Shown here: positions 57,148-64,000 of the stretch, piece after piece
How positions within the stretch are numbered: the stretch's first letter is position 1
Layout of the letters: each line of letters starts with the position of its first letter
Origin: Pseudomonadota bacterium
GTDB taxonomy: Bacteria; Pseudomonadota; Gammaproteobacteria; Burkholderiales; Burkholderiaceae_E
Assembly (NCBI GenBank): GCA_039800325.1
Contig: JBDLQY010000157.1
Coordinates: forward strand, 11,944-75,943
Length of the DNA: 64,000 bases
Reading direction: 5' to 3'
The notes under the pieces: model-generated
Databases searched by the model: none
What the model saw: only the letters and a program-made list of their open reading frames with translations
Told to the model about the DNA's origin: nothing
Made by a program: the position numbers and the translations under genes

Positions 57148-58710
57148 TTAGTGCGCGGTACTTAATGACAGATAGCGCTCAAGAAAATTCTGGTGGGTCG
57201 GCATGCCCTGCGCTTCACGGCGCAGGCTATCGCGAAGGCGGTTGAGCCCACCCAAGCCATCGGCTCGGCGCAAATCTAACAGGGGTAGATGGGTCTGCGG
57301 AAAATTAAGCTGGCCCAGATGCACGGCTAACCAGCTTTCAGCACCAAATAAATCGGCATCATCGATTTGAACTTGCCCGCAGAATCTGAAGAGCTCCATA
57401 CGCTCTTTAAGGCTTTCCGGTAGCGTCATATTCGCGCAGTATTTCCACATCTCGCTATCCGTGCGCTGGTTAAGCGTGTAGTGCAATACCAGGAAATCAC
57501 GAATACGCTCCATCTCGAGCGCGAATCGGCGGTTGTATTCTCGGCGCATGGGCTCGACGAACTGCTTGTTTGGGAACATCGACAACAGCACCGCTAGCCC
57601 CGAATGCACCAGATGCAGACTGGTTGATTCGAGCGGCTCTAAAAAGCCTGAAGCAAGACCCAGTGCCACCACATTACTCTCCCAGGCCTTGTGGCGCCGG
57701 CCAGGCGTGAACTTGATCAGGCGCGGCTCGGCCAGCGCCTTTCCGGGCAGGCGCGCGCGCAAGGTATCAGCGGCCTGTGCCTCTGACAGATATGCTGAAC
57801 TAAAGACATAGCCGTTGCCGACCCGGTGTCGAAGTGGGATGGTCCACTGCCAGCCCGCTTCCAGCGCTGTAGAGCGGGTGTACGGCGCAGGCTCTCCTTC
57901 AAGAGTGCTGGGCATGGCAAAGGCCCGGTCGCACGGTAGCCAGTGCGACCACGATTCGTAGCCTACACCCAGTGTCTCTCCCAGCAGCAGCGATCGGAAG
58001 CCCGAGCAGTCGATAAACAGATCGCCTTCAACGGTGCGCCCATCGGAGAGCTGCACTGACCTGACATGGCCAGTATCCGGATCGAGATGAACCCTATCGA
58101 TGATGCCCTCAACCCGGTTGACACCGCGTTGTTCTGAAAGCCCCCGCAGATAGACGGCATACAGCGAGGCGTCGAAATGAAACGCATAGCTGAAGGTGGA
58201 TGTGAGTAGATCGGGTCGGGATGTAGGCAAGGAGAACCGTCCCATTAGGGCGGCGACAGTAGCCATGGAGTAATCGTCAAGCGTGCCGACAGATTGGCGC
58301 TTGCGCTGCTTGAGCCAGTGTTGATAGACCGGGATGGTATCGAAGGGTTTACCGAAGACACCGAACGGATGCATATAGCGGTGCTCAAGCTGTCCCCAGT
58401 GCACAAACTGTATGCCCAGCTTAAACGTGCCTTGCGTGCGGCGCAGGAACTCTTGCTCGTCGACGCCCATGGTCTGATTGAGCAGTCTGATGGTGGGAAT
58501 GGTGGCCTCGCCCACGCCGACAATGCCGATCTGTTCAGATTCGACCAGGGTGATCTGTACCGCTCGGTGTAGAGAGTTAGAAAGGGCTGCCGCCGCCATC
58601 CAACCTGCAGAGCCACCTCCGACAATGACAATACGGCGAATGCTCAGCGGGTTCTCTGGGTCAGGGTCGACGCGGGCCTTAACCTGCTGGATCCGATTGA
58701 GAACGCTCAT
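57148..58710 (-). CDS. Flavin-dependent (tryptophan-type) halogenase family protein
   Basis: IVIVGGGSAGWMAAAAL (GxGxxG), GVGEATIPT and the halogenase-diagnostic WxWxIP motif (GWQWTIPL). Confidence 0.85.
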   Translation of the reverse strand: MSVLNRIQQVKARVDPDPENPLSIRRIVIVGGGSAGWMAAAALSNSLHRAVQITLVESEQIGIVGVGEATIPTIRLLNQTMGVDEQEFLRRTQGTFKLGIQFVHWGQLEHRYMHPFGVFGKPFDTIPVYQHWLKQRKRQSVGTLDDYSMATVAALMGRFSLPTSRPDLLTSTFSYAFHFDASLYAVYLRGLSEQRGVNRVEGIIDRVHLDPDTGHVRSVQLSDGRTVEGDLFIDCSGFRSLLLGETLGVGYESWSHWLPCDRAFAMPSTLEGEPAPYTRSTALEAGWQWTIPLRHRVGNGYVFSSAYLSEAQAADTLRARLPGKALAEPRLIKFTPGRRHKAWESNVVALGLASGFLEPLESTSLHLVHSGLAVLLSMFPNKQFVEPMRREYNRRFALEMERIRDFLVLHYTLNQRTDSEMWKYCANMTLPESLKERMELFRFCGQVQIDDADLFGAESWLAVHLGQLNFPQTHLPLLDLRRADGLGGLNRLRDSLRREAQGMPTHQNFLERYLSLSTAH

Positions 58711-58725
58711 GGGTATTTGAAGCTT

Positions 58726-62961: not shown

Positions 62962-62974
62962 ACCCGATTGTCGG

Positions 62975-64000
62975 CTATTTCTTGGCCCCGACAACCGTAA
63001 TCTGCAGCCGCGCAACGGTTATGCCGCCGGCCTCATCCGATATGCGTACCGGCACAAACAGACTCTTGAGCTCGCCCTCGGCTAGCGCCTGGTAGCTGGC
63101 ATGGGCTGGATCGAAGCGCCACCGCCCATCGGCCTGCAGACTGAAGCCATCGATGCTCCGCTGACCCAGCACCTCGAAGCTTAAACGTGCGTCTTCATCA
63201 ACGTCGCGAGCATCAATTCGGCCTTCGGCGGGCTTATCAGAGGTGCTGATGCGTACTTCAGCGAGTTGTCCCACCTCGGGCGCATTATTGACGCCGGTAA
63301 CCTCAAGCACCAGCGTGAGTAAGCCTATTCCACCGTAGGGGTCAGATGCGGTAAAGCGCATCGTGACCTCTCGCTTGGCGCCCGCCTTCATGGGCCGCCA
63401 AAATGCGTGACCGGGGTCGAACCGCCACTGACCGCTGTCGTCAACGGTGAAACCAGGTGCCAGTGTCTCGCCCGAAGACAGCGCAAACTTGAGCGCATCA
63501 CCGTCAGGATCGACCGCGTCGAGCTTGCCTGTCAGTGCGCGTGCGCCCTCGGTGGCCTTGATGGTTTTCTGCGCTCCGCCCTGGGGCGCATCATTAACGT
63601 CAACCAGTCTGAGAACGAACCGATCGGATACGCGGGCACCCGAGGCGTCTACGGCTGCGACCTCAATACTGTATGAATCTTTGTCGGCGGGCGGGTTGCC
63701 GCTGAAGGTCTGCGTTTTCGGATCAAATTTCAACCAGGCGGGAAGCGTATCGCCGCCGGTTTGCCGCACTTCATACTTCAGGTCACCCGCCAGACTGAAT
63801 GAGTCGGCTGCGATCGTGATTGTCTTCTCGCCGGGACCGCTCCATGGCTTAACCTGAGAGGCCAGTGGTCGCAGGACCACGCCAACCTCTCCAGCGTCCC
63901 AGCTCTTGAGTTTGTCGCGCATGGCCGTGGTCACCGAGCGGATGTCTGGCTGCGGTGGTGTGGTAGGTAGCGGGTCAAGTCCGGCACTGACGAAGACTCG
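62975..64000 (-). CDS. Cadherin-like/dystroglycan-type Ig-repeat protein; N-terminus lies outside the window
   Basis: The frame stays open upstream of the track start (63934) to the window edge. It has a CADG-like segment (LPAWLKFDPKTQTFSGNPPADKDSYSIEV) and repeats ending VDVNDAPQGG and VTGVNNAPEVG. Confidence 0.7.
   Translation of the reverse strand, partial: RVFVSAGLDPLPTTPPQPDIRSVTTAMRDKLKSWDAGEVGVVLRPLASQVKPWSGPGEKTITIAADSFSLAGDLKYEVRQTGGDTLPAWLKFDPKTQTFSGNPPADKDSYSIEVAAVDASGARVSDRFVLRLVDVNDAPQGGAQKTIKATEGARALTGKLDAVDPDGDALKFALSSGETLAPGFTVDDSGQWRFDPGHAFWRPMKAGAKREVTMRFTASDPYGGIGLLTLVLEVTGVNNAPEVGQLAEVRISTSDKPAEGRIDARDVDEDARLSFEVLGQRSIDGFSLQADGRWRFDPAHASYQALAEGELKSLFVPVRISDEAGGITVARLQITVVGAKK

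Follow-up and report, generated by a model that had tools for sequence, protein, structure and literature searches.

What does an operon serve that joins three HlyD-type adaptor genes, one of them encoding a fused metalloprotease, to a flavin-dependent halogenase gene, and that holds no pump gene? The question is raised by the end of a 64,000-nt stretch of DNA (the window) from a Pseudomonadota bacterium (Burkholderiales; Burkholderiaceae_E; assembly GCA_039800325.1, contig JBDLQY010000157.1, positions 11,944–75,943 of the forward strand), an organism seen solely in freshwater and drinking-water DNA metagenomes. An earlier sequence-only reading could name no described system of this composition, and our full-text literature search agrees: it found no account of a system with this make-up, only incidental mentions. 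The best explanation of the five minus-strand open reading frames (ORFs) at the window end is that they are the 3′ end of a single operon, which in full encodes a giant adhesin, a TolC-family factor, a short adaptor, a GAF-like adaptor, an M50-adaptor fusion and the halogenase. Comparison with other genomes establishes that a pump-less module of a TolC protein and three adaptors is conserved and dedicated to giant proteins carrying LEPR-XLL and DUF4347. For the operon as a whole, the sequences point, with slightly better than even probability, to a pump-less trans-envelope apparatus that would export and process the giant adhesin and to which the halogenase would be an accessory in one clade only.

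Organization of the operon

The five ORFs are present in the ORF table at the coordinates first proposed, as follows.

62975–64000, minus strand: last 341 of the 833 codons of a TolC-family outer-membrane lipoprotein, frame open to base 64000, comprising the end of the OEP domain and an extension
62194–62961, minus strand: short periplasmic adaptor (membrane fusion protein, MFP), 255 aa, HlyD_3 E=3.5e-15 and HlyD_D23 E=3.9e-12
60840–62183, minus strand: GAF-like adaptor, 447 aa, HlyD_3 and HlyD_D23 (Pfam)
60838–60842, minus strand: TGATG, overlap of the GAF-like adaptor stop with the M50-adaptor start, coupling the two genes
58726–60840, minus strand: M50 (site-2-protease-type) metalloprotease-adaptor fusion, 704 aa from ATG, Peptidase_M50, HlyD_3 and HlyD_D23
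57148–58710, minus strand: BrvH-like flavin-dependent halogenase, 520 aa, Trp_halogenase E=4.9e-182, 606 bits

Read 5′ to 3′ on the minus strand, the junctions measure 13 nt, 10 nt, a 1-nt overlap and 15 nt, the last of these lying between the stop codon of the M50-adaptor gene and the start of the halogenase gene. The tight coupling of the five genes, with gaps of 10–15 nt and the TGATG overlap, is confirmed, and a scan of the operon for internal promoters and terminators gave none above the shuffled expectation.

The window end cuts this operon. Metagenome contigs encoding identical 704-aa and 255-aa proteins were used to read beyond it, and they place the 5′ part of the first gene past base 64000. 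This ORF, taken at first for a cadherin protein, does carry He_PIG, Cadherin_4 and Big_9 domains (Pfam) in its window part, but it is not a separate gene: it is the C-terminal third of an 833-aa TolC-family protein. A TolC-like protein had been one of the things to look for upstream, and this gene answers to it, with an OEP domain at residues ~86–500 (97.7 bits, in two stretches), an LAAC lipobox and a partial match to a TolC-family NCBIfam model. The C-terminal extension of ~300 aa, with He_PIG, Cadherin_4/Big_9 and VCBS repeats, is found only in the window's clade, defined here by M50-adaptor proteins 65–75% identical to that of the window together with a cadherin-extended TolC protein (outer-membrane factors, OMFs, of 817–846 aa). 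Its repeat types (62975–63934) are the same as those of the adhesin, and many other lineages have a shorter TolC-protein extension of ~100 aa, He_PIG-like where checked. From TolC topology the C-terminal tail would be expected to start in the periplasm. The nearest named relative of the M50-adaptor protein, at 75% identity, comes from a Ramlibacter metagenome-assembled genome.

Further upstream, a giant VCBS/cadherin-repeat gene overlaps the start of the TolC-family gene by 4 nt at its 3′ end. The giant of the window lineage exceeds 2971 aa and has 12 VCBS stretches before it is cut off at the contig end; a homology search with its C-terminal domain for a full-length copy gave only short contig-end fragments. 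Its orthologues in close relatives are 6165–7728 aa long, and DUF4347 is the first domain listed in them.

Conservation of the module and absence of a pump

Homologous loci were collected by a profile-guided scan of one genome per species, which gave 575 loci. The best 80, from alpha-, beta- and gamma-Proteobacteria, Campylobacterota, Desulfobacterota and Nitrospirota, were analyzed by tblastn and ORF clustering over neighborhoods of up to 10 kb on each side. A single same-strand order recurs, namely TolC-like protein, short adaptor, GAF-like adaptor and M50-adaptor, with the short adaptor gene adjoining the TolC-like gene in at least 34 loci and the GAF-like adaptor gene directly upstream of the M50-adaptor gene in 67 of the 80. 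Recurrence of this four-gene order in dozens of unrelated genomes goes far beyond what chance would give. The recurrent neighbors returned by ORF clustering are the four module families and the giant repeat protein only, and no conserved small ORF was found by this clustering in the 80 genome loci. The M50-adaptor fusion belongs to a large family, matched at E≤1e-5 by 6013 of 8000 scored candidates and falling into 2869 clusters (50% identity, E≤1e-30), of which the best 150 are nearly all end-to-end matches of ~700 aa.

No ABC, RND or MFS gene is conserved across the 80 genome loci (the metagenome loci described below were not screened for pumps), and ABC-like motifs near them are confined to six scattered ORFs. 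The operon likewise contains no pump gene, the upstream-extended contigs included. The earlier description of adaptors with no visible pump thus still holds after extension, and a canonical ABC/RND pump upstream, set beforehand as the refuting observation, was not found. The sole ABC-type gene of the window lies ~50 kb from the operon (5440–7215, minus strand); it encodes an exporter half-transporter (ABC_membrane and ABC_tran) and has no adjacent adaptor gene.

Annotated copies of the module give the same picture. On a chromid of Azospirillum argentinense the order is DUF4347 protein, Ig-like protein, TolC family protein and three 'adaptor subunit' genes, with no ABC gene within 20 kb. The same five genes are clustered on plasmids of E. 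coli, Citrobacter and Hafnia of human, sewage and water origin, and the cluster is present in 24 of 5426 complete E. coli genomes. The E. coli plasmid copy is as follows.

NZ_CP060066.1, record 20836–38214 (loci L177/L178; also H51–H76): giant, OEP, two HlyD, M50-HlyD

The giant of this plasmid is 3668 aa long and has DUF4347 after a divergent 'FALESRQLFDGAALAETA' start. No ABC-type transporter is listed within the 12–20 kb shown on each side of the annotated Azospirillum and E. coli plasmid copies, and the only transporters listed near the annotated copies are an L-lactate permease and lacY. RSP and RSP2 of the IncHI plasmid R27 were considered as equivalents of the E. coli plasmid giant and are treated as a different system; these Ig-like proteins are reported substrates of that plasmid's own type IV export system (PMC6764697, PMC8730810), and the plasmid hits include no record of Salmonella or of R27.

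Association with giant LEPR-XLL/DUF4347 proteins

A giant gene is adjacent to the module in at least 56 of the 80 genome loci. It may stand before the TolC gene, as in the window lineage, between two adaptor pairs, where it separates the TolC/short-adaptor genes from the GAF-like/M50 genes, or after the M50-adaptor gene, as for example in Nitrospira. Where the N-terminus of the giants is visible it is near-invariant, a basic stretch being followed by KPLITALEPRxLLDGAAVAT (consensus RRKPLITALEPRxLLDGAAVAT). The LEPR-XLL model (NCBIfam NF012209) is matched at 17.6 and 19.8 bits against a cut-off of 17, the motif itself was observed in the giants of 19 loci, and DUF4347 follows after a linker with E values of 1e-51 to 1e-59. 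The reverse search, which started from DUF4347 and covered 80 loci on metagenome contigs, found module genes within 10 kb in 38–41 of the 80, a lower bound given the long genes and the many short contigs. The association of the module with giant genes is a two-way one. In the literature searched, LEPR-XLL and DUF4347 are mentioned only in passing, in two and four papers respectively.

In an alignment of DUF4347 sequences (L012–L082) a DA[IV]H motif is invariant and an LLYGC motif near-invariant, each following hydrophobic residues. At the level of sequence these motifs resemble a His/Cys protease dyad; two Nitrospirales copies have no second His and one of them also has no Cys. A profile search of the PDB with DUF4347 returned only the DUF4347 chain 9QPE_G and spurious designed TIM barrels.

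The giants of beta- and gamma-proteobacteria also have a C-terminal domain of ~170 aa in common, with an He_PIG-like core and a helix-like tail, F[VI]PLxxQ...YGxxL. The window lineage's giant has no GGxGxD repeat of the RTX type, and the other module-adjacent giants have at most one. In Nitrospira, where the giant genes come after the M50-adaptor gene, the giants (L065, 12199–18390, and others) terminate with a hydrophobic segment and then an Arg-rich tail, like a C-terminal sorting signal, which replaces the C-terminal domain of the beta- and gamma-proteobacterial giants.

These features invite comparison with the type I secretion systems (T1SSs) of giant adhesins, such as LapA-LapEBC, SiiE-SiiCDF and MpIBP. 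In both, a giant gene lies beside TolC- and HlyD-family genes, and the presumed route across the envelope leads through a TolC-type channel. The module has the HlyD-family MFP and the TolC-family OMF of such systems, whereas a linked ABC gene and an RTX substrate are absent; it has three distinct adaptors, of which one includes an M50 protease and another a GAF-like domain, and its substrate carries the conserved N-terminal LEPR-XLL and DUF4347. The giant could nevertheless be exported C-terminus first by a conventional ABC-MFP-TolC system whose ABC gene is located elsewhere, the GAF-like and M50 adaptors being accessories, for instance for quality control or removal of the N-terminal segment. 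Giant adhesins beside OMF and MFP genes are typical of T1SSs, the common C-terminal domain with its helix-like tail could be a C-terminal signal, a giant reported from Vibrio combines LEPR-XLL with an RTX domain at the C-terminus (PMC10868602), and the ABC gene at 5440–7215 is of exporter type. Against this, ABC and MFP genes are adjacent in the known systems, whereas here an ABC gene is conserved in none of the 80 loci and lies nowhere within 12–20 kb of the annotated plasmid copies; the giants have no RTX repeats, and three different adaptors per locus are atypical. We consider a conventional T1SS rather unlikely.

The resemblance to drug efflux pumps is closer in the parts than in the whole. 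The adaptors share the fold of those in MacAB-TolC, AcrAB-TolC and EmrAB-TolC (lipoyl, alpha-hairpin and beta-barrel; Foldseek E=1e-13 to 1e-16), and an OEP-type outer-membrane factor is present as in these tripartite pumps, whereas an ABC, RND or MFS transporter is missing and the cargo gene encodes thousands of residues. An ordinary small-molecule efflux system that lies beside an adhesin gene by coincidence would fit these adaptor folds and the generic names that the Prokaryotic Genome Annotation Pipeline (PGAP) gives to the plasmid and chromid copies ('efflux RND transporter periplasmic adaptor subunit', 'TolC family protein'). It is already contradicted by the comparative data, as no pump gene occurs in the loci examined, module and giant genes are found together whichever of the two the search starts from, and in many genomes the giant gene stands between the adaptor pairs; this interpretation is largely refuted and we give it almost no weight.

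Adaptors and the M50 fusion

The short adaptor matches RND_mfp at 94.3 bits (NCBIfam), and its hydropathy indicates an N-terminal signal or anchor segment at residues 12–30. The GAF-like adaptor has a cytoplasmic N-domain (residues ~9–141), a transmembrane (TM) helix at 181–199 and, in the periplasm, an MFP body whose alpha-hairpin spans 248–307. The N-terminal GAF-like domain claimed for it at the outset finds support in the AlphaFold model (predicted local distance difference test, pLDDT, 88), where an alpha/beta N-domain has a GAF-like order of strands and helices, and in GAF matches at E≤0.01 in 7 of 25 homologues, but in the window protein the GAF_2 match reaches only 21.7 bits and stays below the cut-off of 28.6. 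Top Foldseek matches of this model are MacA, AcrA and MexA (E=1e-13 to 1e-16; MacA E=8e-16).

By its sequence the 704-aa protein is a member of Peptidase M50, the site-2 proteases. It scores 31.8 bits against a cut-off of 27.2, and the predicted HExxH motif is found as HELGH at residues 201–205 (window 60226–60240), with the second motif NVSPFMRFDG at residues 295–304 (window 59929–59958); across 15 diverse homologues the catalytic residues do not vary. The sequence is predicted to have six hydrophobic segments. The protein consists of a cytoplasmic N-domain (residues ~1–130), the membrane core, an extra TM helix at 419–437 and an MFP body whose hairpin at 486–541 is about as long as the AcrA and MexA hairpins. 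The AlphaFold model (pLDDT 79) shows a helical membrane core and an N-domain of three strands plus helices, and its top Foldseek matches in the PDB are EmrA, MacA and MexA (E~1e-13). Because the Foldseek lists of both models are saturated with MFP matches, the N-terminal domains are unclassifiable by fold, and sequence searches of the PDB found a close structure for neither the adaptors nor the M50 fusion. A PqqD/RRE-type leader-binding domain was considered for the N-domain of the M50 protein, but the sequence does not support it: residues 1–140 gave no Pfam match even at E≤10. Leader binding by this domain is only conjecture, because the domain matches no Pfam family.

The nearest curated relatives of the M50 part are the leader proteases of ribosomally synthesized and post-translationally modified peptides (RiPPs), at partial scores. 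Residues 37–400 align to the NCBIfam model of the daptide leader protease, and the M50 core and its N-terminal extension are homologous over ~360 residues to EpeP/YydH and the daptide HExxH protease, whereas the present protein scores far below the cut-offs, is fused to a periplasmic adaptor and has no small precursor gene. EpeP, a related M50 enzyme, is thought to carry out both cleavage and export of its substrate (PMC10885120). On a RiPP-like interpretation, close to the halogenated secreted peptide first suggested for this operon, the M50 protein would mature a small, possibly halogenated peptide that leaves through the adaptors. The partial matches to the daptide and YydH/LiaK models agree with this, as do the halogenase gene 15 nt downstream, its conserved linkage within the clade and the open active site of BrvH-type enzymes, which is like that of the peptide halogenase MibH (PMC5945002). 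The two model scores, however, are 153 bits against 300 for daptide_HExxH and 28.8 against 225 for YydH/LiaK, the 10–15-nt gaps are too small for a precursor ORF, no conserved small ORF was found, and the halogenase is absent from 160 distant loci. In place of the small precursor that had been sought, the conserved partner is a giant repeat adhesin of the LEPR-XLL/DUF4347 type. The peptide interpretation is very improbable.

An intact M50 site next to a cytoplasmic sensor-type domain also allows a different role, that of a retention device with regulated proteolysis. The Lap system relies on LapG, a cysteine protease, and LapD, the cyclic di-GMP receptor. The analogy to LapD/LapG is functional only, in that a regulated protease would release an N-terminal adhesin segment retained at a TolC-type channel; there is no homology between the parts, and an M50 metalloprotease and a GAF-like domain are present here instead. 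In such a device the adhesin would be exported by other means, its LEPR-XLL/DUF4347 end would lodge in the TolC-adaptor assembly, and the M50 protein would cleave on a signal from the GAF-like domain of the partner adaptor. The conserved N-terminal segment does contain a DGAA/DAAA stretch, and the cadherin-type domains that the clade's TolC protein shares with the adhesin suggest docking. Yet an alternative export machinery is not linked to the locus, the giants have no Sec signal obvious by inspection, homologues of LapD and LapG are absent, and the mechanism overlaps with the export and processing apparatus preferred here. A device for retention only is, in our view, unlikely.

The halogenase

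The halogenase has all the catalytic motifs of the BrvH/Xcc4156 enzymes. The GxGxxG and WxWxIP motifs recognized at the outset are found as GGGSAG (residues 31–36, window 58603–58620) and WQWTIP (residues 287–292, window 57835–57852), and they are joined by FKLGI with a catalytic-type Lys (window 58411–58425) and the Glu motif EPLES (window 57625–57639). Its best solved relatives are 6FRL (BrvH), 9LUQ and 6Y1W (Xcc4156), at E~1e-145. It aligns end to end with BrvH and has no long insertion at the position of the RebH tryptophan loop. Free tryptophan as a substrate requires the long substrate-binding loop of RebH and PrnA. BrvH, which has no tryptophan-binding loop and has a solvent-open site resembling that of MibH (PMC5945002), brominates indole and rejects tryptophan, and its native substrate is not known (PMC5945002, PMC7754283). 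The present gene ends a trans-envelope adhesin operon, a context not reported for BrvH or Xcc4156 in these two papers.

As in the window lineage, the halogenase gene follows the M50-adaptor gene directly and in the same orientation in four further lineages, where the gaps are 12–186 nt; the genes beyond it vary among these linked lineages. Because the linkage persists despite changing surroundings, a functional link between the halogenase and the module is suggested within the window's clade. A halogenase homologue is present in none of the 80 genome loci and in none of the 80 DUF4347 metagenome loci of the wider family. The placement of the halogenase gene right behind the module thus holds for five lineages of the clade but not for the distant loci, and the enzyme is a clade-specific addition of freshwater Burkholderiales that lies outside the core system. 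A halogenated product is possible only as a clade-specific embellishment; the halogenated secreted peptide proposed earlier is not borne out, with the RiPP-protease models unmatched at their cut-offs and the halogenase outside the conserved system. One relative (loci L088, 12187–22115, and L089) has two convergent paralogous modules (OEP, 285 aa, 450 aa and 712-aa M50), which flank the halogenase gene and a fatty-acid desaturase gene.

Other genes in the window

Beyond the halogenase end of the operon lie a 549-aa FAD_binding_3 monooxygenase gene (55054–56703, plus strand), convergent with the halogenase gene, and a small proteasome/HslV-like Ntn-hydrolase ORF (54354–54962, minus strand), neither of them conserved outside the contigs of the window lineage. 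Some 6 kb past the same end is an effector-like ORF with a SopD-like N-terminal domain (49912–51405, minus strand; 30.4 bits), and the ORFs at 45655–47022 (plus strand) and 41838–43493 (minus strand), a weak protein-kinase match and a DUF4049 protein, also have an effector-type look. An IS21-type transposase and IstB pair (35393–37783, minus strand) and a BrnT/BrnA-type toxin-antitoxin pair (38108–38702, minus strand) suggest that the middle of the window is a mobile or island-like stretch.

Proposed mechanism and implications

The export and processing apparatus that we favor is close to the envelope-spanning processing machine given as a fallback in the sequence-only reading. In it, the three adaptors would form a periplasmic ring that docks onto the TolC-like channel, and the M50 fusion would occupy the place in the inner membrane usually taken by a pump, where it may recognize the giant's conserved N-terminal segment and cleave it as the protein is exported or released. 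Gating or sensing could fall to the GAF-like domain in the cytoplasm. Energy might come from extracellular folding of the repeats or from an unlinked ATPase. The BrvH-like open active site of the halogenase would suit a large substrate, possibly the adhesin itself.

Several observations weigh against this apparatus. The module encodes no energy source, M50 proteases are not known to act as protein translocases, and a hidden ABC transporter may be encoded elsewhere, the window itself containing the exporter-type gene at 5440–7215. Beside a few modules (L025 and L052, for example) a giant gene is missing; in the window lineage the N-terminus of the giant lies beyond every contig end, and the LEPR-XLL model finds no match in the E. 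coli copy and a sub-threshold one in the Azospirillum copy. The N-domain of the M50 fusion, where leader binding is conjectured, matches no Pfam family. As regards the halogenase, a fifth further lineage has it inverted between two convergent paralogous modules, at 76% identity to that of the window, and it is absent in the two close relatives L008 and L009.

A bolder form of the proposal is that the module represents a new class of secretion system, in which the M50-adaptor replaces the ABC transporter, LEPR-XLL is a cleaved signal and the adhesin of the window's clade is halogenated by the BrvH-like enzyme; this we advance tentatively and regard as doubtful as it stands. An energized inner-membrane transporter is generally regarded as a requirement of every TolC-dependent machine. 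Were this form correct, the orphan group of BrvH-type halogenases would gain a first native substrate, and a protein one.

If it couples TolC and three adaptors to an intramembrane protease in place of such a transporter, the module would constitute either a new route of secretion or anchoring for the largest bacterial surface proteins or a new type of regulation of type I secretion. Its breadth, with 2869 clusters at 50% identity in several phyla and copies on E. coli and Citrobacter plasmids from clinical and wastewater sources, extends well past the freshwater clade of the window, and the E. coli and Azospirillum carriers make the hypothesis directly testable. A partner machinery would be assigned to the orphan features LEPR-XLL and DUF4347, and the operon offers a candidate physiological context for BrvH-type halogenases.

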